Source: Candidatus Paceibacter sp. (lineage in GTDB: Bacteria > Patescibacteriota > Minisyncoccia > UBA9983). Taken from it: a stretch of DNA of 64,000 nucleotides. The notes under the pieces are model-generated. The model made no database searches. It was given only the letters and a program-made list of their open reading frames with translations, and was not told the DNA's origin. A program made the translations under genes and the position numbers. Positions 10,101 to 41,549 of the stretch are shown here, in pieces (the first letter of the stretch is position 1; each line of letters opens with the position of its first letter). Location of the stretch: positions 30,159 to 94,158 of the forward strand of contig JABWAS010000002.1 in assembly GCA_013360865.1 (NCBI GenBank). Reading direction: 5' to 3'.

Positions 10101-10146
10101 GCCCTCCTCCCTGCAATCCCTCTTGCTTGGAGGAGGCTTTTTTCTC
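10101..10146 (+). terminator. Rho-independent terminator
   Basis: cctcctcc ... ggaggagg stem followed by cttttttctc. Confidence 0.5.
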
Positions 10147-10196
10147 ATCGAAGCTCATCGAAGTCCGGTGTCGATGAGCCTCGATGAGATGAGCTT

Positions 10197-10589
10197 CTAA
10201 AAAGTCTCTTCAACAAAAGTCACCAGGAGTTCTCTTTCCCGCGGGCCGTCCAGCTCCACTAAAACAAGTTTTTGCCACTGGCCGAGCAGGAATTTGCCGC
10301 CGCTGACCGGCAAGCTGACGGACTGGCCGACGACGGAAGCCATGATGTGGTCTTTTACATGAGACGGGTCGTGCAAATGCCGGTATTGCAGCTTCGGCAC
10401 CATTTGTTCAAAAGCGTCCAGCATGTCCGAATCAGTGCCCGGATCAAGGTCGGCCACGGCCAAAGCCGCCGTGGTGTGCTTCACGAAAATATTGCACAAG
10501 CCGATGTCCACCGGCAAAATAATTTCCACTTCCTTGGTAATATCCACGATTTCTTTCTTCCTTTTGGTTTTTATTTTAAGAGTTTGCAT
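10197..10589 (-). CDS. YjbQ/UPF0047 family protein (secondary thiamine-phosphate synthase family)
   Basis: 130 aa. Family-typical segments HTTAAL and DHIMASVVGQSV...GKFLLGQWQ. Confidence 0.65.
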   Translation of the reverse strand: MQTLKIKTKRKKEIVDITKEVEIILPVDIGLCNIFVKHTTAALAVADLDPGTDSDMLDAFEQMVPKLQYRHLHDPSHVKDHIMASVVGQSVSLPVSGGKFLLGQWQKLVLVELDGPRERELLVTFVEETF

Positions 10590-10646
10590 GAGTGTATTAC
10601 CCGCTCAAAATAATCTTTCCAATTTTTTTGCGAATTATTGCCATAG

Positions 10647-11126
10647 TTATCTTACCTCATCATCCTTGATGTAGCGGACTTCGTTTGAGCTTACTCTCCC
10701 CTCTCTAAAATCATCTCCCAGTTTTGGAGGTAATATCTTTACATTATCTTCGGGACTTACCCAATAAATTCCGGAAAGCTCATGGGCATGAGAACGGACT
10801 ATTTTGTCGCTATCGATATAATCTTTTCCGTTTAACACCTCAAAGAAAAATTCTAATGGTTGAATATTTTCCGAACTGACAAAAGTGTTTACATATAATA
10901 ATCTTCCGATAACGGGCTTAACGCCAAGTTCCTCTGTTATTTCCCTGCTAAGGCAACTCTTAACATCTTCTCCCCATTCCAAATGGCCGCCAGGCAAGGC
11001 GACATAACCTGAATCAGATGAATGTCGCACTAAAAGCAATTTCCCATCATGGAAGATTATTGCTCTGCACCGTATTACAAATTTTTTAGTATTGTCCGCG
11101 TTCATTTTTCTATCTAACTTGGACAT
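10647..11126 (-). CDS. NUDIX hydrolase
   Basis: Nudix box GGHLEWGEDVKSCLSREITEELGV. The track ORF starts at a TTG at 11177; the ATG at 11126 (MSKLDRK...) is more plausible and avoids overlap with the upstream gene. Confidence 0.65.
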   Translation of the reverse strand: MSKLDRKMNADNTKKFVIRCRAIIFHDGKLLLVRHSSDSGYVALPGGHLEWGEDVKSCLSREITEELGVKPVIGRLLYVNTFVSSENIQPLEFFFEVLNGKDYIDSDKIVRSHAHELSGIYWVSPEDNVKILPPKLGDDFREGRVSSNEVRYIKDDEVR

Positions 11127-11146: not shown

Positions 11147-11797
11147 TCAGTTTTGTTGACCAACCAAGTTTTTCCAAAGGTTAATCATATTCCTATCCTT
11201 TGCCCAATACTCCAGAATATTATCCCGAAGCTCTTTGTGTTGCGGATAGCCGCCATCAACGATTCCCTCAGGCATCAGGTCCTTGCACTCAATATTAAGC
11301 AAAACTGTAATAGCCTCTTTTAGATCATTATACTTCTGTTTACCAATCTTTTCTTCCCAATCGGCCCCGAAAGCATGCCAAGTATAGAAATGCCACAATT
11401 CATGCATGGATGTTTTTCTGGCGGAAAGCGACTGCGCGGAAACGTAAAAGAAATTATTTTCAATACTGTACGGACAGCGGCTATTTATAGTAAGGTAGGC
11501 CACAATATCGCCAGGAAGAGAAACTCCGAAAATAGTTTCTGCTCTTTTTTGGTATTCACCTGAAATACTATCCCAATCTTTTTGAAATTTTTCCACGCAT
11601 TCGCCAATATTAATTTTATTATCCTTAAGATATTTTCCTATAAAATCGTCCGTCATTTCAGGATTAGGATACTCTCCGTGCATGGCTACAAGTTGCTCAT
11701 ATTGTTTTGTCGGGATTTGAGAATTGCTTGAACTTTTCCCTCTGCTCAACAAGCACCAGATGTCCTTTTCTTTATTGTATGTAAAACTGACTTTCAT
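11147..11797 (-). CDS. hypothetical protein with HExxH-like motif
   Basis: 216 aa with MHELWHFYTWH; possible zinc-dependent hydrolase. Confidence 0.4.
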   Translation of the reverse strand: MKVSFTYNKEKDIWCLLSRGKSSSNSQIPTKQYEQLVAMHGEYPNPEMTDDFIGKYLKDNKINIGECVEKFQKDWDSISGEYQKRAETIFGVSLPGDIVAYLTINSRCPYSIENNFFYVSAQSLSARKTSMHELWHFYTWHAFGADWEEKIGKQKYNDLKEAITVLLNIECKDLMPEGIVDGGYPQHKELRDNILEYWAKDRNMINLWKNLVGQQN

Positions 11798-11840
11798 TCT
11801 ATATATACTAATGACAAATCATGATCTTGGCGAAGGATGA

Positions 11841-11911
11841 CTGCCGGACTTGGATTCGAACCAAGATTAGCGGATTCAGAGTCCGCGGGCCTACCATTAG
11901 CCGATCCGGCA
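11841..11911 (-). tRNA. tRNA-Gln (CTG anticodon)
   Basis: The reverse complement gives a 7-bp acceptor TGCCGGA/TCCGGCA, a T-arm CTTGG-TTCGAAT-CCAAG and an anticodon stem GCGGA/TCCGC with loop CTCTGAA. CCA is not encoded. Confidence 0.75.
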
Positions 11912-11973
11912 ATGTTTACTTTCCTCAAATAATCTAGCAATAAAAACGCCAAAAATCCAGCTCGCCAAAAATT

Positions 11974-12003
11974 AAAGGGGAGTTAATTAACTCCCCTTTT
12001 TGT
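11974..12003. terminator. bidirectional Rho-independent terminator
   Basis: Perfect palindrome aaggggagtt-aatt-aactcccctt flanked by A-run and T-run. It sits just downstream of the minus-strand gene 12025..12456. Confidence 0.6.
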
Positions 12004-12024
12004 TTAGACGCTAGCAAAATATTA

Positions 12025-12456
12025 TTATGTGCTCCGGGCAAGGCGCGAGTTGATAAGTTTATTGTAAAAACTTCTGATTCTTTTTTCTATCAACTCTTTT
12101 TTACTCTTGTCGGCAATTACGGTTTTTATATATTTGTTAAGTTTATAAAAACCGAATATCTCCGCTTTGCCGCCCTCCATAAAACAATAAATTGACATTG
12201 GGTTTATGTCTTCGTGATGCTCGACGCTTATGTGACAGTTTATATCTGCATCACAGCTTATAACTGAAACGATTATTTTAACTCCGCCGTTGATATTATC
12301 GGATGGAATATCCGCGATATAACTGTCTCTAATCTTCTTATTATCATCAGAACGCCACTTAAATTGACCATTTTCCAGAAAACCAATCAGGTCAAGAAAG
12401 AAATTAAACCAATCATCTTTTTCCGCTTTCTCGTCAAAAATTGCAAAAAAATCCAT
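12025..12456 (-). CDS. hypothetical protein
   Basis: 143 aa with no recognisable motif. Confidence 0.4.
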   Translation of the reverse strand: MDFFAIFDEKAEKDDWFNFFLDLIGFLENGQFKWRSDDNKKIRDSYIADIPSDNINGGVKIIVSVISCDADINCHISVEHHEDINPMSIYCFMEGGKAEIFGFYKLNKYIKTVIADKSKKELIEKRIRSFYNKLINSRLARST

Positions 12457-19981: not shown

Positions 19982-20073
19982 AAGCCATGTTTTGCGGATG
20001 TTTTTTGATTGGTGGGTGTAAAGTCATGTTTTAATTGTTGTAATTGTTCTAATGTTCTAATTGTTTTAATAAT

Positions 20074-20448
20074 TTAACCTCTTTTTGTCAGGAATTTATC
20101 CAAGGCAATAAGCTTAAAATACTCCTCTTGAATTAACTTATCTAATTTATCATAAATTTCTTTACTTATATATTTTTGCTCCAATGATATATCAATACAG
20201 GCCATAGTTTCCATGAGTGACCCTAAGGCAATTCTCACGAATGAAGCAAAATCTTTACTGGTCCTTTTGGCGCTTCCTTCAGCAATATTAAGAGGAACTG
20301 AAATTGCGGCTCTCCTAATTTGAGAAACCAGGCAAAATTTTTCATCATTTGGAAAATTTTTAGTTATTGAGTATATTTCTTTGACAATACTCATTCCCAA
20401 TTTCCAAACATCCAATTTATAGAATCCATATTCAACTTTTTTCTGCAT
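20074..20448 (-). CDS. four-helix-bundle protein (23S rRNA intervening-sequence protein family)
   Basis: 124 aa. Family-typical segments CLVSQIRRAAISVPLNIAEGS and ALGSLMET. Confidence 0.65.
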   Translation of the reverse strand: MQKKVEYGFYKLDVWKLGMSIVKEIYSITKNFPNDEKFCLVSQIRRAAISVPLNIAEGSAKRTSKDFASFVRIALGSLMETMACIDISLEQKYISKEIYDKLDKLIQEEYFKLIALDKFLTKRG

Positions 20449-20500
20449 ATAATGCTCAACTAGAACATTTACAACAAGCGTAGCGATAGAACAACTAGAA

Positions 20501-20971
20501 CTATTTCTTCAAAATTTCCTCCACCATTTTTATTTCTTCCAAAATGCCGTCTATGAGGTCGTATTTTTCCGCCTCTTTGGCGGTCACCCATTTAAAATCC
20601 ACGCTGTCTTCGTCCAGCTTCACTTCACCGGAAACTAACGGACAGTAATAACTCAACACCAAAACCGGAATGCCGTCCGGCCGGATGAAAGTCAAGTCCA
20701 GAAGATATTGCGGTTTGCCGATTTCCAGATTAACCTCTTCTTTTATTTCTCTCCTTAGCGCGTTTTCCACCGCGTTGTACCACTGGTCGCCCTTGTGAGT
20801 GGGCGGGGTGTTCGTGTAATCATCGGTTTCCAATCCGCCGCCCGGCACCGTCCATTTACCCGGAAAAGCTTTTTTGCTCAAACTCCGACGGGTGATCAGA
20901 TATTTGCCATCTTTGTTATAAATAATCGCCGTAGTGGTTATCCGATGCAGTTCTTTATCTTTGATTTGCAT
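20501..20971 (-). CDS. NUDIX hydrolase
   Basis: Nudix box GGGLETDD...ALRREIKEEVNLEI. 156 aa. Confidence 0.7.
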   Translation of the reverse strand: MQIKDKELHRITTTAIIYNKDGKYLITRRSLSKKAFPGKWTVPGGGLETDDYTNTPPTHKGDQWYNAVENALRREIKEEVNLEIGKPQYLLDLTFIRPDGIPVLVLSYYCPLVSGEVKLDEDSVDFKWVTAKEAEKYDLIDGILEEIKMVEEILKK

Positions 20972-20995
20972 AAAAATTGTTTAACATTTGTAATT

Positions 20996-21991
20996 TCACC
21001 TCTGCATAGTCGAAACTAAATCTATGTAATTCAAGTAATCTTCACATGTTACATTGTTATCATTAGGAATTTCTATTTTTTGACAAATATTTGGATCTTT
21101 ATTGTTTCTAGAAATTTCATAATAACAAGCATTCATTAATTTTACTGAATCATTCCTTACTTTTTTACATTCATTGGGATCATTATTTGCAATCAAGGAA
21201 TAACAATTTATTATCTTAAAACCATCCGTAGCGCTAAAAAAAGTTTCTTTTTCTTCACAAATTTTACTTCCATTAATTATTTTGCATTCAATTACCTTTG
21301 GAGTACCAGAGACATTTTTGATGTTCTTGCATAAATTTATATCTCCGGAATTGATTGCTACATCCCTAAAACAAGAATTTTTGTCATCCTGACTTTTTAA
21401 AGCCAAACATATTTTTTCATCATCTAAACCTACAGCATATCGCATTAAGCAACTTTCTACAGAATAGGCAGGATTTCCACTAGAATAATCGTAGAGATCC
21501 ATTTCAGGAATTTTACGGCAAAGATTTGGGTCTTTTTTGCTTTTAGCAATCGTTAAAATACAAGTAGTGTCCTTGCATAGTTTTTCATCATTAGTAACTA
21601 CGGCTACAACGCTAAAACAAGAATCTCTTCTTTCTTCTGTAACTCTATCGCAGAATGTAATATCTTTATGGAATCTAGCAACATTTATATAACAAGAACT
21701 CTTATTGTCTTCATCTTTAAACTCCTCGCATTTTTTTGGATCAGTAATTTCTGGTGCAACTTCACTTAAGCATTCCTCTTTAAACTTTTCGATAGGAATT
21801 TTATAACAAATTCCCGGATTTTGGTCTTTTGCCGCCTTATTAATGTATTCGTAATAATCCTTTTCAGTGAAATTAGTGAGATTGTTGATAAAATTTGTTT
21901 TGGCTAATAAGAAATACCCCGAAATAATTACAACAATTATAATTAAGAAAAATTTTATAAATCCTTTTTTATTATTCATAGAATTTTGCAT
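20996..21991 (-). CDS. secreted Cys-rich repeat protein
   Basis: 331 aa with an N-terminal TM/signal. About 24 Cys fall in reiterated units such as DxxxC(Y/F)xx(V/I)A...(K/D)xxxC, for example KSSCYINVARFHKDITFCDRV and DKNSCFRDVAINSGDINLCKNI. Confidence 0.5.
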   Translation of the reverse strand: MQNSMNNKKGFIKFFLIIIVVIISGYFLLAKTNFINNLTNFTEKDYYEYINKAAKDQNPGICYKIPIEKFKEECLSEVAPEITDPKKCEEFKDEDNKSSCYINVARFHKDITFCDRVTEERRDSCFSVVAVVTNDEKLCKDTTCILTIAKSKKDPNLCRKIPEMDLYDYSSGNPAYSVESCLMRYAVGLDDEKICLALKSQDDKNSCFRDVAINSGDINLCKNIKNVSGTPKVIECKIINGSKICEEKETFFSATDGFKIINCYSLIANNDPNECKKVRNDSVKLMNACYYEISRNNKDPNICQKIEIPNDNNVTCEDYLNYIDLVSTMQR

Positions 21992-21997
21992 ACCGGT

Positions 21998-22534
21998 TTA
22001 AAACTTTACCTTGACCGGTTCTTTGGCCGCCTCCTCCTCCAATTCAAAAAATTCCTGTTTTTGGAAATTAAACATTTTGGCGACGATATTACTGGGGAAA
22101 ACGTCTATTTTGGTATTAAGGTCGCGGACGTTGGTGTTGTAAAAACGCCTGGCCGCCTGGATTTTGTTTTCCGTGTCGGAAAGTTCGTCCTGCAGCTTGG
22201 TAAAACTTTCCACCGCCCGCAGTTGCGGATAAGCCTCGGCGATGGCAAAAATGGATTTTAAAGCCGAGCTGACCATGTTGTCCGCGTCTTCTTTTTCTTT
22301 CACCGTTTGCGCGCCCAGCGCCCTGGCGCGAGCCTGCGTCACTTTCTCAAACGCTTCCCTTTCGTGAACGGCGTAACCCTTCACTGTTTCCACCAGATTA
22401 GGGATAAGGTCGTAGCGCCTCTTTAATTGCACGTCAATATCCGCCCACGCCTCCTTAACGCGGTTAACGAGCCGGACAAACCCGTTGTAAGAAGCGATAA
22501 ACCAGATTACGACGACTCCCAAAACGCCCAACAA
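21998..22534 (-). CDS. LemA family protein
   Basis: N-terminal TM, then NGFVRLVNRVKEAWADIDVQLKRRYDLIPNLVETVKGYAVHE, typical of LemA. Confidence 0.8.
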   Translation of the reverse strand: MLGVLGVVVIWFIASYNGFVRLVNRVKEAWADIDVQLKRRYDLIPNLVETVKGYAVHEREAFEKVTQARARALGAQTVKEKEDADNMVSSALKSIFAIAEAYPQLRAVESFTKLQDELSDTENKIQAARRFYNTNVRDLNTKIDVFPSNIVAKMFNFQKQEFFELEEEAAKEPVKVKF

Positions 22535-22551
22535 AATATAAAAAATAAGAT

Positions 22552-22764
22552 TTAATTTTTTATAAACCTCCTTAAGTTTTCTAAAGATTCTTTCTCTTCC
22601 AGATTCAAAAGATAAATCTCCGTCAAATCTTTAAATAAATCTATTCTTTCCTTCAAATCCATTTGAGGAACTTTTTCCAAAAGCAAAACCTCCTGATTTT
22701 TATCTATGTTTAGGGATTTGATAAGGCTTTGCAGGCTATTGTTTTTTAAGATGTCGTTTGCCAT
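22552..22764 (-). CDS. small hypothetical protein
   Basis: 70 aa, acidic, with no motif. Confidence 0.3.
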   Translation of the reverse strand: MANDILKNNSLQSLIKSLNIDKNQEVLLLEKVPQMDLKERIDLFKDLTEIYLLNLEEKESLENLRRFIKN

Positions 22765-22778
22765 GGCTTTATTTTAAA

Positions 22779-25715
22779 TTAAGGCGTTTTTGGCTGGCCC
22801 GGCTGAGTCTGCGCCCCCGCAGCCTGTTTATTGTAGGGCGGTTTCCCCTTGCCTCTTGTCTTCCAGCCCGGCTGCTGTTGAGGCTTCGGTTTTTCCGGCG
22901 GATTAAGCAACGTGGCTACCAATCCGACCATCCAGTTTATAAAACCCTTTCTCTTGTTGACGCTGTTTTTATAGCCAGTGTTCAGGTTGTTCATTATCCC
23001 AAGGCTCCAGGCGTCGCCTTTGGCGCTATTTTCGTAAGCCTCGTCAAGGAAATTGGTTTCTAAACCGAATCCTTCCATAAATTCTTTAATGCTTTCCAGT
23101 GTTTCGTCGTCAAGCTCATCACCCAGATTTTTAATACCTTTTCTTTCGGAAATATTTTTCAGGAAATCTTCCGCTTCGGTTTTGCCGCCCAAAAATTCTT
23201 CAATTTTGCCGATTTTTTCCTTATTTCCTTGCTCTGTTTTGACGCTCTTGAGCAAAATTTCATTGACTCTTTCCGCTTTCAACCGGCGAAGATAGCCAGT
23301 GATTCCGCCTTCGGCGTTTTTTATCGTGTCAGATATTTTAGAAATTGTTTTATAAGTTTCAAGATTTATTTCTTTACCTCTTTCCGATTGCCACTCTTCG
23401 CCTAATTCTTTTATGGCTCTTTCTCTTAAATTTTTATAAAAATCCGCGTATTGATTTCCAAGAAAACCGGCAATATCTTTTTTGGAAAAAACTTCCTTGC
23501 CGGTGTTTATTTTGCCGCCCAAAATTCCCGCCAATGAGAATTTCTTAAAATCATATCCGTTTTTCAGCAAGATCAAAACATCATCCTCTTTCACTTTCAA
23601 CTTTTTTCCTCCAATAGAATCAATAGAACCAAGTTGCTCTCTCATCTTCTCCTGGAAAAATTTGTCGGAGTCGCCACCGTATTTCTTAACCTTGTCTTCT
23701 TCGGTAATTTTATCCCATTCTCCGCCCCATATTTCTTTTTTAAGAAAATCACGATGGCTTAATTTTTTCTCCTGATAATTTAAATTAAGCTGAGTGTACT
23801 TTTCTTTAGAGATAATTTTCTTATCAACCTGTTTTGCAGATTCTTCGCCCAAATTTCTTCCTGAAGTCTTAATTGCTAATTCTTCTTGTGTTTTTGTAAG
23901 ATTATTGAATTCTTGCTCTTTAATGCCTCTCTCCGCTCCCTTCAAAACAAAGTTGCCGCTAGAGTCTTTTTTGTTTAAGGTATTAAAAAGTTCTTGTCTT
24001 CTGTCTTCAAGAAAATGGAGCATAACAACAGGACTTTCCAGCCGCATTTCACCCTTTTCCATTTCCGCCCTGATATTATAAAGCTCTTCTTTTTTCAAAA
24101 ATTTCTCGTAGTCTTCCTCTTCGCACCAGGAGCAAGTTTTATTTTTTATTTCATCGCCCAAACCTTCTTTTATAAAATAAGCCAGCTTGCGGGAGTCGGA
24201 CATATTCACGTCCACGCCCTGTTGCGTAAGTTGGTCTTTGTTGGACTCAAAATATTTCTTGGCGAAGTTGAGATTAATTTCTTCGGATTGCTGTTTGGCG
24301 AACAGATTAACGTAATCTTTGGACGAGTCGGAAAACTTCATCTCCTCCCTCGTCCTGTCCATAAACTCTTTGGCTTCCTTGCGCTCCAAAGCTTCGCCCG
24401 GAGTTTCAAAATCGTTTTTTAACTCTTTTTCAGGATTGTATAGTTTATCTATTTTTTCCGCTCCCCCTTTCATATCATCTATTATATTACCGCTTCCCAT
24501 AAAGTCCATCAATCCACCGGACGGCTTAAACTTGCCGTCGGTCATTTTGTCCAATATCTCCGTCAATAATTCGTCGGGTAAATTTTCACCCGCGGCCAGT
24601 TCACTTATCCACATTTTCCCGCGAACGGGTATCCCTTGGGAGAACTCATCAGTTATTTCCTTGGTTGAATATATGCCGAACATATTCTTTTCCGGAATCC
24701 ACCTTATGTAAGTGTCATAGCCGCAAGCCGCCGCCGCTTCAAAACCGAAGCCGACCTTGCCGCCGATGTCTACGATAATTTTCCCATATCGGCCGGAATC
24801 TAAAGCAAAGCCGTTTTTATCCAGCCAATCCAGCCTTTTAACGGAAAACTCCGCGTTTTTCTTTTGCTGTTTGCTTATTTCAGAAATTGTTTTGCCGCTG
24901 TATTTATCATTGCCCAGCTCTTTTAATTCCTCCTCGGATAACGCCCGCCAAGGGTCTTTAAAATAAGTGACAGCCTTGCCCGCTTTATTTTTTCCGGTCT
25001 TTGGTTTAAAAAATTCACGCAAATTGTCAAATGTTATATGTCTCCTCAAGCCGGCCAATGTGTTGGGAAATTCGTTTTCAAAAAAATTTTTATTCAAAGA
25101 TCCGACATAACCGGCGTTGTCTGTATTGGTGACGAATTTTACCATCTCGTCCAAATATTTCTCTTTCTTGAGCAAGCCAAGCCCGGTAAGGATTTTGTAA
25201 GTGAGCTCCGACGCGGAAGTGCCGCTCTTGGCGTCCGGCCCGTGGTGGTCTATGAGCATTGTTCTGCCGCCGTCTTTGACTACCAAACCCCACTCGTTGC
25301 CGGTGTCTATAACCACTCTCCCTTCCGCGGATCCTCCCTGATGAACATAATCAACTTTTGACGCGTCTACTCCGGCAAGTTTAATAAGTCCGACACTGGC
25401 GTCCCCATCCAAATCGCTAAAGTTGCTAATTGTCGGCTGTTTGTCTTTGCCGTTCATTATCAGCCCGTGAGTAACAAGCTCTTTCCAAAATTCTCTTGTT
25501 TTTTCTTTAAATTTTTCATCCCCTTCTTTCTCCGTGGCAGCGTTAAGGTCTTCGTAATTTTCTATCCGACTGAAGGTAAAATTGGAGGCTAGCCTTATCA
25601 ACTCCGCCTCGTGCCTTTTTTTCTCTTCTCCCGTTAACTTGTCGTCGGGCGCCCAACGGCCTTCATATTCCATCCCTTCGTTTCTCTTTGTGTTGCTGCT
25701 GCTGTTTTTTGACAT
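22779..25715 (-). CDS. DHH/DHHA1-family phosphoesterase (NrnA-like) fused to a long Lys/Glu-rich C-terminal extension
   Basis: N-terminal about 370 aa carry the DHH motifs: I (SDLDGDASVG), II (VVIDTGNEW), III (MLIDHHGPD) and a degenerate GGGH/DHHA1 region (GGKVGFGFEAAAACG). Then comes about 600 aa of charged low-complexity sequence ending in a Pro/Gln/Lys tail. Confidence 0.55.
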   Translation of the reverse strand: MSKNSSSNTKRNEGMEYEGRWAPDDKLTGEEKKRHEAELIRLASNFTFSRIENYEDLNAATEKEGDEKFKEKTREFWKELVTHGLIMNGKDKQPTISNFSDLDGDASVGLIKLAGVDASKVDYVHQGGSAEGRVVIDTGNEWGLVVKDGGRTMLIDHHGPDAKSGTSASELTYKILTGLGLLKKEKYLDEMVKFVTNTDNAGYVGSLNKNFFENEFPNTLAGLRRHITFDNLREFFKPKTGKNKAGKAVTYFKDPWRALSEEELKELGNDKYSGKTISEISKQQKKNAEFSVKRLDWLDKNGFALDSGRYGKIIVDIGGKVGFGFEAAAACGYDTYIRWIPEKNMFGIYSTKEITDEFSQGIPVRGKMWISELAAGENLPDELLTEILDKMTDGKFKPSGGLMDFMGSGNIIDDMKGGAEKIDKLYNPEKELKNDFETPGEALERKEAKEFMDRTREEMKFSDSSKDYVNLFAKQQSEEINLNFAKKYFESNKDQLTQQGVDVNMSDSRKLAYFIKEGLGDEIKNKTCSWCEEEDYEKFLKKEELYNIRAEMEKGEMRLESPVVMLHFLEDRRQELFNTLNKKDSSGNFVLKGAERGIKEQEFNNLTKTQEELAIKTSGRNLGEESAKQVDKKIISKEKYTQLNLNYQEKKLSHRDFLKKEIWGGEWDKITEEDKVKKYGGDSDKFFQEKMREQLGSIDSIGGKKLKVKEDDVLILLKNGYDFKKFSLAGILGGKINTGKEVFSKKDIAGFLGNQYADFYKNLRERAIKELGEEWQSERGKEINLETYKTISKISDTIKNAEGGITGYLRRLKAERVNEILLKSVKTEQGNKEKIGKIEEFLGGKTEAEDFLKNISERKGIKNLGDELDDETLESIKEFMEGFGLETNFLDEAYENSAKGDAWSLGIMNNLNTGYKNSVNKRKGFINWMVGLVATLLNPPEKPKPQQQPGWKTRGKGKPPYNKQAAGAQTQPGQPKTP

Positions 25716-25727
25716 GAGTTTATTTTA

Positions 25728-26828
25728 TCATTTCCCCGCCAATTGTCCGCAGGCGGCCAAGATGTCTTCGCCCAAACTGGCGCGGAACGTAACAGAAACG
25801 CCCAGCTTTTTCAACCGGTCAAAAAATTGATTTCTTTTTGTTTCAGAAGATGGGCTATACTGCAACCTGCCCGCCTCGCTAGTCTCGATGTTTGTCGGGA
25901 CGTTGCGGGCGTGGTCGTGGTATTTTATGAGGTTTAAATGATAGAGCGACCCCTTCATCAGTTTGGCCAGCTTTTCTGCGTCTTTATCCGTATCGTTTAT
26001 GCCCTCAATCATCAGATACTCAAACATAACTTTGCGGTTTGTTTTTTCTATGTATTCATCTACCGCTTCCATTACTTCCTTTAAGGGATAAATTTTGTTT
26101 ATTGGCATCAAAACTGACCTCATGTCGTTGTCCGGAGAGTGCAGAGAAACAGCCAGATTGACCTGGAAATTTTCATCGGCGAATCTTTTTATTCCCGGAG
26201 TAACGCCGCAGGTGGAAACGGAAATATGCCTGGCGCCGATGTTTAATCCATCTTTGTCGTTTAAAATTTTTAGCGCCTCCATAACGCTCTCGTAATTCAA
26301 AAACGGCTCGCCCATGCCCATAAAAACGATGTTGTTGACCACGCCTTCTGAATGGCAAGGTTCAACCTTGCCATTCGATGTCAAGGTTGAACCTTGCCAT
26401 TTACGTTTCAAATATCGCGCGAAATACAAAACCTGATCCACTATCTCCGCGCTATCCAAATTTCTTTTAAATCCGCCTTTGCCGGTGGCGCAGAAGCCGC
26501 AACCCATGGCGCAGCCGGCTTGCGAAGAAACGCAGACCGTATTTCTGTCCTTTAGGTGCCTCATCAAAACAGTTTCAATGGTAAAATTTCCGTTTATTTT
26601 GAAAACTGTTTTGATGGTCCGGCCGTCTTTTGATTTTGCGGTTTTAACCGGCTTCAGGTTCAACAACGGAAAATTTTTCTCCATTTCCTCCCGCAATTCC
26701 TTAGATAAGGTCGTCGCCTCCTCCCAGCTTTCTATCAAATCGCAAAAAACCGCTTTCTTGATCTGCTTTAAGCGGTAAGGTTTGTGACCGTTTCTATTCA
26801 AAAATTTTTCTAACTTAACTATGTCCAT
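25728..26828 (-). CDS. rlmN: radical SAM 23S rRNA/tRNA methyltransferase RlmN/Cfr family
   Basis: CxxxCxxC cluster (CAMGCGFCATG), MGMGEP, and a C-terminal ACGQLAG with the second catalytic Cys. Confidence 0.85.
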   Translation of the reverse strand: MDIVKLEKFLNRNGHKPYRLKQIKKAVFCDLIESWEEATTLSKELREEMEKNFPLLNLKPVKTAKSKDGRTIKTVFKINGNFTIETVLMRHLKDRNTVCVSSQAGCAMGCGFCATGKGGFKRNLDSAEIVDQVLYFARYLKRKWQGSTLTSNGKVEPCHSEGVVNNIVFMGMGEPFLNYESVMEALKILNDKDGLNIGARHISVSTCGVTPGIKRFADENFQVNLAVSLHSPDNDMRSVLMPINKIYPLKEVMEAVDEYIEKTNRKVMFEYLMIEGINDTDKDAEKLAKLMKGSLYHLNLIKYHDHARNVPTNIETSEAGRLQYSPSSETKRNQFFDRLKKLGVSVTFRASLGEDILAACGQLAGK

Positions 26829-26975: not shown

Positions 26976-28106
26976 TTACTTCGGTCCCAGAAATTCCGTT
27001 TCCGCTTCCTCGGGATGAGTGTGACGGGAGTATCTTCTCATGCCCATCAGCATTCCCAGGGCGGCGTAAATGGTAAGCATGTGCGAACCGCCATAACTCA
27101 TAAACGGCAAGGTGGTGCCGGTTACGGGCAGCAGGCCGATGTTCATCCCAACGTTGACGAAAAAGTGGGCGCACAGGAGCACAGCCACGCCAATGCCAAA
27201 AAGAGTTTCAAAATTGGTGGCTCCGATGGCCGCGTTTTTAAGCACCCTCCAGACAACTATTCCATAAAACAAAAATATCAGCAATGTTCCGGCAAACCCC
27301 CACTCCTCGGCGAAAGCGGCAAAGATAAAATCTGTCTGATGCTCGGGCAAAAACTCCAGCCGGCTCTGACTGCCGAAACCTATTCCTTTGCCGAACACCC
27401 GCCCCGAGCCGACGGCGATCATGGATTGGATGGCGTTGTAGCCGGCGCCCCGGGCGTCTCTGGCCGGATCAATAAAAGTTATGATGCGATTTTTCTGGTG
27501 CGGCTTCAGGACAAAAAACCAGGAAACGCTTAAGAAAACCGCGGCAAGCATGAATATCGCCAGCAAGTGTTTTTTGCTTACACCGGAAACCGTTATCATG
27601 CCCAACCATATCAAAAATATTATGGCCGCCGAACCGAAGTCGGGCTGAAGAAAAACCAGTCCCGCCGGAATGGCCGCGTAAATTCCCGACAGGATTATGT
27701 GCCTGATGTTGGCTATCTCCGTGTGACGGCGGGAAAAATATTTGGCCAGAATAAGAATGATTATTATTTTGAGCGGGTCGGAGGGCTCCAGCGAAAAAAA
27801 ACCCAGATCAAACCAGCTGGCCGCTCCTTTTGTCACCTTTCCCCAAAGAAGAAGTGCCGCCAGAAGAAAGTTTATCGCCAGAAAGAACGACATTATCACT
27901 CCTGTCTTCCGGAAAAATCTCCAGTCCACGGAACTGAAGACGAAGAAAACGACCCAGCTTATGCCGATCCATAAAATTTGCCGGTCAAAGAAGTAGTCGC
28001 TTCCCGCGCCCAAAGACCTCATGCTTATCAGTCCGGCCGCCAGCAACGGTACCGCCGCCAGAAAAAGCGTCCAGTCAATGCCAATATAACGGGTGAGAGC
28101 CTTCAT
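26976..28106 (-). CDS. SEDS family peptidoglycan glycosyltransferase (FtsW/RodA)
   Basis: 376 aa, polytopic. Conserved C-terminal PVTGTTLPFMSYGGS motif. Confidence 0.85.
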   Translation of the reverse strand: MKALTRYIGIDWTLFLAAVPLLAAGLISMRSLGAGSDYFFDRQILWIGISWVVFFVFSSVDWRFFRKTGVIMSFFLAINFLLAALLLWGKVTKGAASWFDLGFFSLEPSDPLKIIIILILAKYFSRRHTEIANIRHIILSGIYAAIPAGLVFLQPDFGSAAIIFLIWLGMITVSGVSKKHLLAIFMLAAVFLSVSWFFVLKPHQKNRIITFIDPARDARGAGYNAIQSMIAVGSGRVFGKGIGFGSQSRLEFLPEHQTDFIFAAFAEEWGFAGTLLIFLFYGIVVWRVLKNAAIGATNFETLFGIGVAVLLCAHFFVNVGMNIGLLPVTGTTLPFMSYGGSHMLTIYAALGMLMGMRRYSRHTHPEEAETEFLGPK

Positions 28107-29012: not shown

Positions 29013-29125
29013 CCTCTGAACCGGCGGCTAGCTACTTTCCCCCAAAAGAGTATCATCGCCGCTACCACGTTTCACTTCCGTGTTCGGAATGGGAACGGGT
29101 GGTTCCGTGGCGCCAAGCCACCGAA
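29013..29125 (-). rRNA. rrf: 5S ribosomal RNA
   Basis: The reverse complement contains the conserved ccgaacacggaagtgaaac and gcgatgatact...gggaaagtag 5S segments. Confidence 0.8.
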
Positions 29126-29373: not shown

Positions 29374-29394
29374 CTTTACAGGTTTCCTAATAGG

Positions 29395-32928
<3,534 letters not shown>

Positions 32929-39839: not shown

Positions 39840-41549
39840 TCAAACCATTTTTATATCCTCTATCCGCAGGCGCAATTCTCTCCTGCCACGGAAGTCGTTT
39901 CTTTCCAGCGAGGCCGCCAGATTTATTTTCTGCCCGCTTCGCAATCCGCTAAAATCGCCGCCCCTGAAAAATCCCACCGCCGAAATGTTCTCCCCGCCGC
40001 TTTTTTTGAAATTAATCTGGAGATGCGCGTCGCCGTTGCCGAATTTCCTCACCTCACTTATCGGCAAATCGTAAAAGGCGAAGACCGGCTTTTCGTTTTC
40101 CACCCCGAACGGACGCAATTTTTCCAAAAAAGAATAAAACTGCCAGTTCATATCGTCAATTTTCATCTCTCCGTCTATAAAAATAAAACCGTTTTCTACG
40201 TTATCGCGCGGATAAGACTCAAACCTGTCCAAAATCTGCTCGCCCAACTCATCTTCCCGTCCGTCGTTTAAGGTAAATCCTCCAGAAAAAGCGTGTCCGC
40301 CAAAGTCGCTGAAGAATTCTCTAGGCAACCCTCCCATAAAATCAACCAAGTTGATTGAGCCGTTGCTGCGGCAGGAACCTCTTATCTTATCGGCCCGGCC
40401 CCTTCCCCACAGGAACACCGGGCAACCGTACTTTTCCATAATTTTATTGGCCGCGATTCCCAAAACGCCCGGATACCAGTCCGCGCTGCCATCTACTATT
40501 ATCTTTGGGCTTTCTTCCCGTCCGATTTTATTCATTACCGCTGATGATATTTTTTCCACCTGATTTTTCCTGTCCGCCGTCAAAAGCTCCAATCTGCCGC
40601 TTATCCAGTCGGCTTCCTTTTCTGAGTCGGTGGTCAAAAGATTGTAGCCCAAAGTGGCGTGGTCCATCCGGCCGGCCACGTTTATGCGCGGAGAAATTAG
40701 AAAGGCCAGATCCTCTTCGTTTATAATGGAAGGGTTGATGCCCAGTCTGTTATAAAAAGAGATTAGCCCCGATCTCTGCGTTTTCGGCATCACTTTTCTT
40801 AAACCGTAAAGAGTAAGCACCCTGTTTTCCCCGACAAGCGGCACCATATCCGCCACGGTCGCCACCGCCACCAGATCAAGAAGCCATCTTTCCCAGCCGG
40901 GCACTATATTGAAGCCGCCCCGGGCGACGAGAGCGCAAACAGTTTTAAACGCCAGTCCGGCTCCGCACAGAAATTTGAACGGGTAATTATCATCTTCTTT
41001 TTTCGGATCAATTATGGCGCAAGCCGGAGGAGTTTTACCATCCTGAACGAGATGGTGGTCTATTACCACCACGTCCATACCTGAAGCATTTGCCTTTTCT
41101 ATCTCTTTGCCGTTGGTTACACCGCAATCAACGGTTATGAGCAAGGAAGTCCCGGCGCGGGCGAATTCGTCAACCGCTTTCTCGTTCAGACCGTAGCCCT
41201 CCAGAAACCTGTCCGGAATGTGGACGTGGAAGTTTTCGAATCCGGTTTTTTTGAAAAAGTCGTGGAATATGACGCAGGAGCAGATTCCGTCGGCGTCATA
41301 ATCGCCGAAAACGGTTATCTTCTCGTTATTTTTCATCGCGCGGGAAATTCTCTCTACGGCCTTATCCATTCCGTCCAGCAAAAACGGATCGTGTAGCCCG
41401 CCGTCATAAGCGGGGTTTAAAAATTCTTCGGCCTCCTTTTTTGTTTTAACGCCTTTGTGAAAAAGTATTTTCCGAAACGGATCCGGCCACTCTGCCAGTT
41501 CTCTTGCCGCGTCTTCCGGAACTATGTCTTTGACCAACCATTGCTTCAT
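39840..41549 (-). CDS. recJ: single-stranded-DNA-specific exonuclease RecJ
   Basis: DHH motifs (GDYDADGI, VVIDHH) and the DHHA1 GGHAFSGG motif. 569 aa. Confidence 0.85.
   Translation of the reverse strand: MKQWLVKDIVPEDAARELAEWPDPFRKILFHKGVKTKKEAEEFLNPAYDGGLHDPFLLDGMDKAVERISRAMKNNEKITVFGDYDADGICSCVIFHDFFKKTGFENFHVHIPDRFLEGYGLNEKAVDEFARAGTSLLITVDCGVTNGKEIEKANASGMDVVVIDHHLVQDGKTPPACAIIDPKKEDDNYPFKFLCGAGLAFKTVCALVARGGFNIVPGWERWLLDLVAVATVADMVPLVGENRVLTLYGLRKVMPKTQRSGLISFYNRLGINPSIINEEDLAFLISPRINVAGRMDHATLGYNLLTTDSEKEADWISGRLELLTADRKNQVEKISSAVMNKIGREESPKIIVDGSADWYPGVLGIAANKIMEKYGCPVFLWGRGRADKIRGSCRSNGSINLVDFMGGLPREFFSDFGGHAFSGGFTLNDGREDELGEQILDRFESYPRDNVENGFIFIDGEMKIDDMNWQFYSFLEKLRPFGVENEKPVFAFYDLPISEVRKFGNGDAHLQINFKKSGGENISAVGFFRGGDFSGLRSGQKINLAASLERNDFRGRRELRLRIEDIKMV

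Follow-up and report, generated by a model that had tools for sequence, protein, structure and literature searches.

What does the long gene directly downstream of rlmN encode in a 64-kb window of a Candidatus Paceibacter genome (the window being the whole 64,000-nucleotide stretch that was analysed)? A preliminary description had read it as a DHH/DHHA1 phosphoesterase of the NrnA/GdpP-like type, carrying an unusually long charged tail. Positions 22779..25715 on the minus strand form an uninterrupted open reading frame of 978 codons plus a stop. The ATG lies at 25715, separated by 12 nt from the rlmN stop codon (25728-25730), as the preliminary description had it. The database gene call P0001 (964 aa) begins instead at M15; sequence comparison favours the first ATG, because the orthologues P0002, P0003 and P0005 have N-termini similar to residues 1-25. 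We found neither a signal peptide nor a transmembrane segment in the 978-aa protein, and the open reading frame is predicted to encode a soluble enzyme, ending in NPPEKPKPQQQPGWKTRGKGKPPYNKQAAGAQTQPGQPKTP. The protein divides into the following parts:

25476..25658, minus strand: family-specific N-terminal helical segment (about residues 20-80, consensus EGDEKFKEKTRELW), conserved in alignment A1
25071..25475, minus strand: DHH-type catalytic lobe (about residues 81-215), recognised by conservation, motif register and fold matches
25242..25250, minus strand: codons of the DHH triad D156, H157 and H158, conserved at 98%, 99% and 97%
24498..25070, minus strand: inter-lobe linker and insert, then a DHHA1-like second lobe (about residues 216-406)
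22905..24497, minus strand: lineage-restricted tail module of ~530 aa (residues 407-937), Lys/Glu-rich and predicted all-helical, colinear with P0002-P0004
22782..22904, minus strand: Pro/Gln/Lys-rich C-terminal end (residues 938-978), peculiar to this protein and missing from its orthologues

Profile searches did not place the protein among known DHH families. Neither Pfam DHH (PF01368) nor DHHA1 (PF02272) matched the whole protein or its N-terminal fragments at E<=10, an outcome that the preliminary description had itself named as grounds for giving up the assignment. NCBIfam likewise held no DHH/DHHA1 match for the 978-aa protein, and scans of the protein, its fragments and its relatives against Pfam, NCBIfam, PADLOC and PHROGs gave nothing meaningful; weak matches to ExoX-like_C, WWE_3, ApoC-I and SbsC_C were discarded as far under the cut-offs. 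Since the window's own RecJ scored strongly in the same scan (DHH 1.3e-23, 84 bits; DHHA1 3.8e-10), the protein is, by profile, not of the NrnA/GdpP type. Its layout points the same way. The N-terminal transmembrane helices, PAS domain and degenerate GGDEF domain that precede DHH/DHHA1 in GdpP were not seen, and in place of a stand-alone NrnA of ~310-340 aa with housekeeping-level conservation we find 978 aa in a family with a median length of 823 aa. RecJ_OB, the C-terminal OB fold, had no match in the 978-aa protein.

Placement in the DHH superfamily as a whole is supported by near-invariant motifs I-IV together with weak, in-register matches to PggH and RecJ. With the single sequence as query, the PDB sequences yielded no match. 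The family profile, searched against the same set, matched PggH (E=0.0047) with DxD and DHH in register, and against the window's RecJ it gave E=3.5e-4 with motifs II-IV in register; a looser alignment to this RecJ stays colinear through motifs I-IV and on into the DHHA1 lobe, at low confidence. The sequence-level links are marginal, as hhalign probabilities to known DHH proteins lay at 12-37%. The AF2 model of the core (pLDDT 89.3, pTM 0.87) predicts a two-lobe DHH/DHHA1-type alpha/beta fold joined by a linker. In a Foldseek search with this core the top 11 matches all belonged to the DHH superfamily, headed by B. subtilis NrnA (probability 0.97). Among the fold matches, archaeal RecJ/Cdc45-like proteins score at least as high, and the structural matches do not separate NrnA-type enzymes from these proteins.

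The motifs on which the preliminary description relied, DGDASVG (from residue 103), VVIDTGNEW (from 134) and LIDHHGPD (from 154), are present in that order, and they are not there by chance, because they are the most conserved columns among 153 family representatives that otherwise average ~35% column identity. The key residues of the catalytic lobe are H83, D101-x-D103 (motif I), D137 (motif II), D156-H157-H158 (motif III) and D199-N200 (motif IV), conserved at 92-99% (n=153), with D101 at 95%, D103 at 99%, D137 at 98% and D199 at 97%. Judged from these columns, the metal-ligand motifs (DxD, D, DHH, D) appear complete and under strong purifying selection. From motif register rather than model coordinates, we infer that D101, D103, D137, the DHH triad and D199 form one metal site. 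Ahead of the lobe, R41, F69 and W77 of the N-terminal segment are conserved at 83-88% in the 153 representatives, and its helices are predicted at pLDDT 85-96.

The second lobe was found to be remodelled. Where a degenerate GGGH region had been proposed, a literal motif search of the 978-aa protein returned neither GGGH nor GGH, and no histidine column of the lobe reaches 80% among the 153 representatives. FGGHAFSGG of RecJ pairs only loosely with F.QG..VRG of the family profile. G311, W339, F346, G361, R365 and M368 are the conserved residues of this lobe; GGGH has been lost, and an invariant R365 (97%) is conserved instead with W339 and G361. Of the original family assignment the superfamily therefore stands, on motif conservation and the PggH and RecJ profile matches, and the NrnA/GdpP-like label is not supported (no DHHA1, no GGGH, fast evolution).

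Taken together, we consider it probable, if well short of certain, that the first ~410 residues belong to the DHH phosphoesterase superfamily, as a highly divergent but catalytically intact representative of a CPR-only family with modular helical extensions. Conservation of the ligand residues lends indirect support to a phosphoesterase activity, in which the protein would hydrolyse a phosphoester by means of a divalent-metal centre, occupied by Mn2+ or Mg2+ like those of other DHH enzymes. The substrate would most likely be a nucleotide, a short oligonucleotide or single-stranded nucleic acid, attacked at a phosphodiester or at a terminal phosphate, and the altered second lobe may confer a specificity other than that of NrnA, GdpP or RecJ. 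Because the GGGH substrate-binding motif is absent, a nucleotide substrate is suggested by analogy only, the basis being, to our knowledge, all characterised bacterial DHH/DHHA1-fold enzymes; DHH-fold enzymes also include pyrophosphatases and polyphosphatases.

The family defined by the core comprises at least 684 clusters at 50% identity, with 450 of the 684 representatives at E<=1e-30. All named members are Patescibacteria (Parcubacteria, Moranbacteria, Paceibacterota and Berkelbacteria), and the family has so far been seen only in CPR/Patescibacteria. We found no relatives in viral contigs and no paralogue within the 64-kb window; a scan of reference genomes returned 3 loci, but it needed exact peptide patterns and is a poor gauge of prevalence. 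It is a large branch of the DHH superfamily that current profile databases miss completely, and our literature search found no paper on a DHH family in Patescibacteria, nor on DUF5663, a neighbour discussed below. Protein lengths range from 278 to 2315 aa (median 823), with the core at variable positions between unannotated flanks, so the tail is unusual beside enzymes of ~320 aa, as had been pointed out, yet long unannotated extensions are the norm within the family. Fusion and fission are evident, as a protein encoded separately downstream of one member can match the C-terminal extension of another (e.g. 1e-53 and 2e-20). The core may thus serve as a portable catalytic module, with long, fast-evolving Lys/Glu-rich helical modules either fused to it or encoded as a separate neighbour.

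In the window's lineage the fused module is the ~530-aa helical tail, with an amphipathic helix and a basic disordered end at its close. The highly charged extension that had been described is real, roughly 570 aa in all and rich in Lys and Glu (14.3% K and 13.3% E over residues 421-930). The AF2 model of the tail shows 24 helices at low confidence (pLDDT 48, from an alignment of only 4 sequences), and a conserved amphipathic helix, GFINWMVGLVATLL (residues 924-937), closes the module. Predicted secondary structure and conservation point to a folded helical module, and the prediction is of helices, not of a chain that is simply charged and disordered; for the last ~40 residues pLDDT drops to ~30. 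We detected no internal repeats and no Pfam match in the tail, and searching the database with the isolated tail recovered nothing beyond the query protein. As to whether the tail is conserved or lineage-specific, a point raised at the outset, residues 407-937 are a lineage-restricted module that is colinear in at least six other proteins, and the final residues 938-978, of net charge +7 (+6 to +7), are unique to this protein. The L009 orthologue shares the tail, and the tail HMM also matches P0115 and P0048 (~1e-16). Full-length colinear orthologues are P0002 and P0003 (36-37% identity) and the L009 protein (45%). The tail diverges faster than the core and the neighbouring genes. Possibly, it targets or regulates the enzyme by binding a partner, nucleic acid or membrane, and takes no part in catalysis. 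We also considered that it is a fused copy of the separate large proteins of other lineages; this was dropped, as hhalign probability was <1% for all twelve.

The gene order in the window's lineage is RodA, RlmN, the DHH-like gene, a small ORF and LemA:

26976..28106, minus strand: rodA, SEDS family (FTSW_RODA_SPOVE, 2.4e-88), farther upstream
25728..26828, minus strand: rlmN, radical-SAM rRNA/tRNA methyltransferase (Radical_SAM + RlmN_N), directly upstream
22552..22764, minus strand: conserved 70-aa ORF of no known family, starting 14 nt past the stop codon
21998..22534, minus strand: lemA (Pfam LemA, 5.3e-61), the next gene downstream of the 70-aa ORF
39840..41549: elsewhere in the window, the canonical recJ, with Pfam DHH and DHHA1

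The adjacency of rlmN is conserved in L001, L002 and L009. Both rlmN and rodA lie upstream on the same strand; the proposed operon with rodA is reduced to same-strand proximity, because rodA and rlmN are spaced by 147 nt and, adjacent in L001 and L002, have three genes between them in L009. Counterparts of the 70-aa ORF in L001 and L009 are 59-67% identical to it, and it has no Pfam match; the idea that it is a truncated DUF5663 was rejected (no HMM match, hhalign probability 0.1%). The position of lemA is conserved in L001 and L009. Against its syntenic orthologue the core shows 48% identity, as compared to 56-83% for the neighbouring genes. A link to pGpG or c-di-GMP, raised by the PggH match and a GGDEF gene in L001, was dropped since the window holds no GGDEF gene.

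A different neighbourhood was observed in the wider family. In 9 of the 13 lineages sampled, a member is closely followed downstream by DUF5663 and an orphan VirD4/TrwB-like ATPase. Seven loci (L003, L006, L007, L012, L013, L014 and L016) share the order DHH-like gene, optional large protein, DUF5663, ~150-aa protein and DUF8128/TrwB ATPase, and Berkelbacteria (L010, L011) carry a shorter version in which a single gene separates the DHH-like gene from the ATPase; in L011 a DUF5663-like gene lies just upstream on the opposite strand. An N-terminal transmembrane segment is present in the ATPases of L003 and L006 but was not detected in that of L007, which matches TrwB_AAD_bind, DUF87 (the HerA central domain) and TraG-D_C. 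A 2025 survey reported thousands of orphan T4CP homologues in Patescibacteria, with no relaxase and no assigned role (PMC12102498). On this ground the protein could act as the nuclease or phosphodiesterase in a system that translocates nucleic acid, working with the adjoining membrane-anchored VirD4/TrwB/HerA-like ATPase, or be the substrate of that ATPase. It would degrade or process the nucleic acid moved by the ATPase, in the manner of HerA-NurA, and the window protein would derive from such a component by relocation and fusion. RecJ-like proteins among the top fold matches are in line with this, as is the basic character of the family's C-termini: 24% of them reach +4 or more, against 7% of internal windows (p=4e-9), and that of the window protein carries the +6 to +7 noted above. 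The C-terminal effect is small, however, and five of the nine positive loci (L003, L007, L013, L014 and L016) share upstream PMT_2 synteny, also with L006, and are not independent. Moreover, the ATPase, DUF5663 and the ~150-aa partner are absent from the 64-kb window and from the 5-8 kb flanks of L001, L002 and L009. The ATPase is also missing from L004, L008 and L015, and no relationship could be detected between the window's tail and the partner modules found elsewhere in the family. We regard this translocation role as a tentative and rather unlikely account of the protein.

It is doubtful that the protein is a housekeeping enzyme of the NrnA/GdpP type (a nanoRNase, pAp phosphatase or c-di-AMP phosphodiesterase) with a decorative charged tail. 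The missing DHH/DHHA1 profile match beside a strong RecJ control, the loss of GGGH and the lack of a conserved second-lobe histidine all speak against it, and a core at 48% identity beside neighbours at 56-83% evolves unusually fast for such an enzyme. Archaeal RecJ/Cdc45-like proteins fit the fold at least as well, the cluster with DUF5663 and a T4CP-like ATPase in 9 of the 13 lineages is not a nucleotide-turnover context, and the window contains no diadenylate or diguanylate cyclase. A non-catalytic DHH-fold scaffold serving purely as a protein-interaction platform, like eukaryotic Cdc45, is highly improbable, because all seven canonical metal-ligand residues are kept at 95-99% in the 153 sequences against an average of ~35%, the retention expected of an active site and not of a decayed one; Cdc45-like proteins are marked by loss of these residues. 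Finally, a sequencing or assembly frameshift that merged a ~400-aa enzyme gene with a ~570-aa gene for a charged protein, an arrangement for which the separate adjacent genes of other lineages offer a precedent, is effectively refuted by the uninterrupted frame, by the identical protein P0001 on 12 contigs and by the colinear core and helical tail in independent assemblies (P0002 and P0003, 924 aa; L009, 940; P0115, 1042; P0048, 953).

A divergent, catalytically intact phosphoesterase thus remains the reading we prefer, and around it a wider proposal may be sketched for the family, which we put forward with considerable reserve: that it is the hydrolytic component of an undescribed chromosomal system of Patescibacteria, built around orphan membrane-anchored VirD4/TrwB/HerA-like ATPases. 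In one version, nucleic acid would be imported and degraded or otherwise processed to feed nucleotide salvage in auxotrophic epibionts; in another, the ATPase would recognise the basic C-termini and export the family proteins as enzymes. The helical extensions, fused or split, could be adaptor parts, with the window protein a lineage-specific derivative, fused and relocated. RecJ and Cdc45 belong to the DHH superfamily, and so do the enzymes that remove nanoRNA, pAp and dinucleotides, whether cyclic or linear. With their minimal genomes, CPR bacteria rely on scavenged nucleotides, and therefore an abundant, unrecognised, fast-evolving hydrolase of nucleotides or nucleic acid, if that is what the family is, bears on their lifestyle. 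What is new is a branch of the superfamily with a predicted intact catalytic centre and a rebuilt substrate-binding lobe, and an HMM of the family would annotate hundreds of CPR proteins now called hypothetical. Through its repeated linkage to DUF5663, the ~150-aa protein and the T4CP-like ATPase, the wider family offers a concrete set of candidate partners for the ATPases left without a function in the 2025 survey (PMC12102498).

Among known systems, the wider family invites comparison with HerA-NurA, as 9 of the 13 lineages cluster the gene with an ATPase of the TrwB_AAD_bind/DUF87/TraG-D_C type; the analogy applies to the wider family only, since the linkage is absent from the window. A translocase ATPase with a partner nuclease is a known arrangement in HerA-NurA, and the fold of NurA is RNase-H-like, not DHH. 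In comparison with NrnA-type enzymes (B. subtilis NrnA, 5j21; S. aureus Pde2, 8iu7; T. maritima TM1595, 5o1u; B. burgdorferi DhhP, 9r7o; V. cholerae PggH, 7d62; PAP phosphatase, 8a8k), the window protein has no Pfam DHH/DHHA1 match, replaces GGGH by the region of G361 and R365, has an additional helical element at its N-terminus and a large insert between the lobes, measures 978 aa against about 320 aa, and evolves quickly. The archaeal RecJ/Cdc45-like nucleases (GAN/PF0399, 5yh1; M. thermautotrophicus RecJ-Cdc45, 7bhi; M. jannaschii RecJ2, 7ykv) share 12-13% identity with it and no sequence-profile match, and they lack its N-terminal helical segment and helical tail; its host is a CPR bacterium, and we saw no sign of a CMG/GINS-interaction role for the window protein. 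Bacterial RecJ (the window copy; PDB 1ir6, 2zxo) belongs to the same superfamily, with motifs II-IV in register and motif I aligned at low confidence.

The ORF described was borne out as an unbroken frame of 978 aa on the minus strand, and its expected motifs were located in the product: DGDASVG at residue 103, VVIDTGNEW at 134 and LIDHHGPD at 154. The Lys/Glu-rich tail is real as well, with 14% Lys and 13% Glu over residues 421-930, and the Pro/Gln/Lys-rich peptide taken as its end is the true C-terminus. The rlmN stop codon (25728-25730) lies 12 nt ahead of the ATG, as the preliminary description had it. The database call of the identical protein begins at Met15. As the first ~25 residues resemble the N-termini of three orthologues (P0002, P0003 and P0005), the real start is probably the first ATG and not Met15. 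The gene and the other features referred to here are as follows.

20074-20448, minus strand: 23S rRNA-intervening sequence protein (PF05635, 1.3e-35)
20996-21991, minus strand: Cys-rich 331-aa ORF, hydrophobic N-terminal segment, no Pfam match
22552-22764, minus strand: 70-aa ORF, beginning 14 nt past the DHH-like stop codon
22779-25715, minus strand: DHH-like gene, single ORF without interruption, 978 aa
28114-28878, minus strand: 254-aa protein directly upstream of rodA, N-terminal hydrophobic segment, CGGPC motif, no Pfam match
29019-29125, minus strand: 5S rRNA gene, after the 23S rRNA gene
29385-32928, minus strand: 23S rRNA gene, 3544 nt
39840-41549, minus strand: canonical RecJ with DHH, DHHA1 and RecJ_OB

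An operon with rlmN and rodA had been proposed. The adjacency to rlmN (Radical_SAM and RlmN_N domains) holds; the link to rodA (FtsW/RodA/SpoVE family, 2.4e-88), which is separated from rlmN by 147 nt, amounts to proximity on the same strand. Downstream on the same strand follow the 70-aa ORF, lemA, the Cys-rich ORF, a NUDIX gene, the 23S rRNA-intervening protein gene and an M48/HtpX peptidase gene. The order 254-aa protein, RodA, RlmN, DHH-like gene, 70-aa ORF, LemA, with NUDIX and M48 further on, recurs in three close relatives (L001, L002 and L009, the last with three additional genes between RodA and RlmN), which supports a conserved unit RlmN-DHH-like gene-small ORF-LemA within one Parcubacteria lineage. 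In L001 and L009 the 254-aa protein keeps its position with 55-56% identity and the 70-aa ORF with 59-67%. The latter falls in no known family, shows no relation to DUF5663 and may act as a small partner protein.

The 5S and 23S rRNA genes are placed upstream of this gene group. The 23S gene exceeds its 2925-position model by roughly 600 nt of insertions, which are frequent in CPR rRNAs, and the free-standing intervening sequence protein is encoded about 9 kb away from it. The rRNA genes appear to be unlinked, since the 64-kb window holds no 16S gene. The Cys-rich ORF falls in the stretch of lowest GC (33% in 20001-22000; most of the window has 40-50%). It separates two genes, lemA and NUDIX, that adjoin in L001, and looks like a lineage-specific insertion. 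L001 in turn carries a RelB/YafQ toxin-antitoxin pair (10132-10691) and a GGDEF-domain gene (11617-12279) between NUDIX and the region past M48; in the window neither a homologue of the GGDEF protein nor a GGDEF/GGEEF motif was detectable.

The protein had been assigned to the NrnA/GdpP-like phosphoesterases, and profile searches, whose failure had been named beforehand as a refutation, did not bear this out. No Pfam-A or NCBIfam match was obtained at E<=10, neither with the whole protein nor with the N-terminal 163 or 343 residues scanned alone, which removes the compositional penalty of the tail, and a single-sequence search of PDB sequences was empty. The tool itself works, as the window RecJ matched strongly in the same scan (DHH 1.3e-23, DHHA1 3.8e-10, RecJ_OB 2.2e-26); the organism thus has a standard DHH nuclease besides the divergent one. 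The GGGH motif that had been read as degenerate is lost altogether, GGGH and GGH both being absent from the whole protein. Sequence-profile links to known DHH proteins are weak, yet in register. The family profile matched PggH in the PDB (E=0.0047) with DxD and DHH aligned, and hhalign against RecJ aligned motifs II, III and IV (E=3.5e-4, probability 37%). A deeper profile of 153 sequences aligned colinearly with RecJ, at low confidence, across all four motifs and on to the DHHA1 lobe, where FGGHAFSGG of RecJ sits opposite F.QG..VRG of the family.

The part common to homologues is limited to residues ~30-406. AlphaFold2, run for residues 20-420 on a 15-sequence alignment, gave a confident model (mean pLDDT 89.3, pTM 0.87), and the top 11 Foldseek hits include NrnA (probability 0.97), NrN, TM1595, RecJ-Cdc45, GAN and Cdc45; two fold-comparison methods concur. 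On this model the protein is an enzyme of the DHH-superfamily fold, despite the failed profile tests. The superfamily placement stands and the subfamily does not, and a housekeeping NrnA/GdpP enzyme of odd length is, given the missing profile match and the lost GGGH, unlikely. In the 15 sequences H83, D101, D103, D156, H157 and H158 are invariant and D137, D199 and N200 nearly so. This was seen also among 153 members (D101 95%, D103 99%, D137 98%, D156 98%, H157 99%, H158 97%, D199 97%, N200 96%, H83 92%): the DHH motifs are intact, strongly conserved and under selection, with GGGH lost. The second lobe conserves G311, W339, F346, G361, R365 (97%) and M368, and no conserved histidine was found in it across the 153 members. 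These columns point to a catalytically active, metal-dependent hydrolase whose substrate-binding lobe has been rebuilt and whose active-site geometry is putative, and they speak against an inert scaffold of the Cdc45 type. Such a hydrolase would cleave a phosphoester of a nucleotide or short nucleic acid, and its specificity may be set by R365, W339 and G361 of the remodelled lobe.

When 1.84 billion cluster representatives were searched exhaustively with HMMER, 684 family members were found, 450 of them at E<=1e-30. Wherever a source gives a name it is 'hypothetical protein', none has a Pfam domain, a signal peptide or a convincing TM helix, and those with taxonomic labels are all CPR (Patescibacteria group, Moranbacteria, Paceibacterota, Parcubacteria, Berkelbacteria). 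The length of the protein had been presented as unusual; lengths range from 278 to 2315 aa with a median of 823 aa, and the core may be N-terminal, central or C-terminal (median flanks 190 aa N-terminal and 125 aa C-terminal), so a long extension is the norm. Lys and Glu are abundant in the flanks (11.8% K, 12.7% E), as they are in the core. This is a large unannotated family with modular extensions, so far only in CPR.

The tail (residues 407-978) can be aligned colinearly with P0002-P0004; in 50-residue windows the identity is 20-40%, and aromatic and hydrophobic positions are kept. A terminal amphipathic helix is conserved (GFINWMVGLVATLL versus GFVKFMLDFVEALL), and the last 41 Pro/Gln/Lys-rich residues are, in this comparison, found in the window protein only. 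The 940-aa Parcubacteria orthologue in L009 shares 45% identity along its entire length. Over ~500 residues the tail HMM also matched P0115 and P0048, at about 1e-16. Since a database search with the tail alone recovered only the window protein itself, the tail, whose conservation had been in question, is conserved within one subclade only. The low-confidence AlphaFold2 model (pLDDT 48) has 24 helices and leaves the ends unstructured, and there are no internal repeats. We describe the tail as a predicted helical module, which may serve in targeting or partner binding. A frameshift fusion of two genes is ruled out, since independent assemblies contain colinear orthologues and 12 contigs carry the identical protein. 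Compared with syntenic L001 the core is 48% and the tail 29% identical, against 56-83% for the neighbours, which makes this the fastest-evolving gene in its neighbourhood.

Some separate large proteins encoded directly after family genes are homologous to C-terminal extensions of other members. A 680-aa protein (L004:12189-14231) is homologous to P0100 residues 501-769 (38% identity, 1e-53), a 644-aa protein (L012:2852-4786) matches P0013 residues 998-1422 (2e-20) as well as P0152, P0084, P0039 and P0015, and an 854-aa protein (L007:10267-12831) matches P0152 (1e-15). This indicates repeated fusion and fission between enzyme and partner module. In L013 the separate protein is missing and the DHH-like protein has 1153 aa; together these data suggest that core and helical modules act together, fused or split. 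The window tail has no detectable relation to the separate large proteins (hhalign probability <1%).

Linkage to an ATPase was found in 9 of the 13 lineages sampled, representing Berkelbacteria, Moranbacteria and Paceibacteria-type lineages. These loci are not all independent, since six (L003, L006, L007, L013, L014, L016) share upstream PMT_2 synteny. Seven same-strand loci (L003, L006, L007, L012, L013, L014, L016; for example L016:10001-18056) have the following order.

Position 1: DHH-like gene
Position 2: 640-1120-aa protein, no assigned function, optional
Position 3: DUF5663, ~100 aa, where called
Position 4: ~145-165-aa unknown protein
Position 5: ~800-aa ATPase matching DUF8128, TrwB_AAD_bind, DUF87 and TraG-D_C (VirD4/HerA-like); the L003 and L006 ATPases bear a TM segment at the N-terminus

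In the Berkelbacteria loci L010 and L011 the cluster is shorter, a single 361-506-aa gene separating the DHH-like gene from the ATPase, and in L011 a DUF5663-like gene lies just upstream on the opposite strand. L004 and L008 have DUF5663 nearby and lack the ATPase, L015 has neither, and none of these partner genes occurs anywhere in the window. The L016 copy lies among core genes of a 484-kb chromosomal contig, so nothing obvious marks the cluster as a mobile element. The L007 cluster carries an additional T4SS-pilin-like gene, mreBCD-pbp2 comes after the cluster in L012, and a 23S rRNA-intervening-type gene directly follows the T4CP-like ATPase in L014. The contig of P0017 (L005:4092-16166) is a near-perfect inverted duplication with PMT_2, PMT_2 and DHH-like gene mirrored around ~9800, giving a second family copy on the opposite strand; it is probably an assembly artefact and was left out of the locus count.

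Our literature search found DUF5663 in no paper and no DHH family described in Patescibacteria. A 2025 survey (PMC12102498) reported 5,713 VirD4-type T4CP homologues in 2,918 Patescibacteria genomes, just 148 of them near virB4 and with relaxases nearly absent, and its authors consider them possibly exapted; DHH proteins go unmentioned there and the DHH-like/ATPase cluster is not described. That the family is a hydrolytic partner, or a substrate, of such orphan T4CP-like ATPases is a tentative reading to which we give a rather low likelihood. Basic C-termini are modestly in excess in the family: 24% reach >= +4, compared with 7% of windows (p=4e-9). The end of the window protein carries +6 to +7. 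Both observations are compatible with the partner or substrate reading and prove nothing. The window protein is a new divergent variant within a known kind of enzyme, and its gene, of moderate interest alone, is a helpful pointer to a Patescibacteria gene cluster still in need of explanation.
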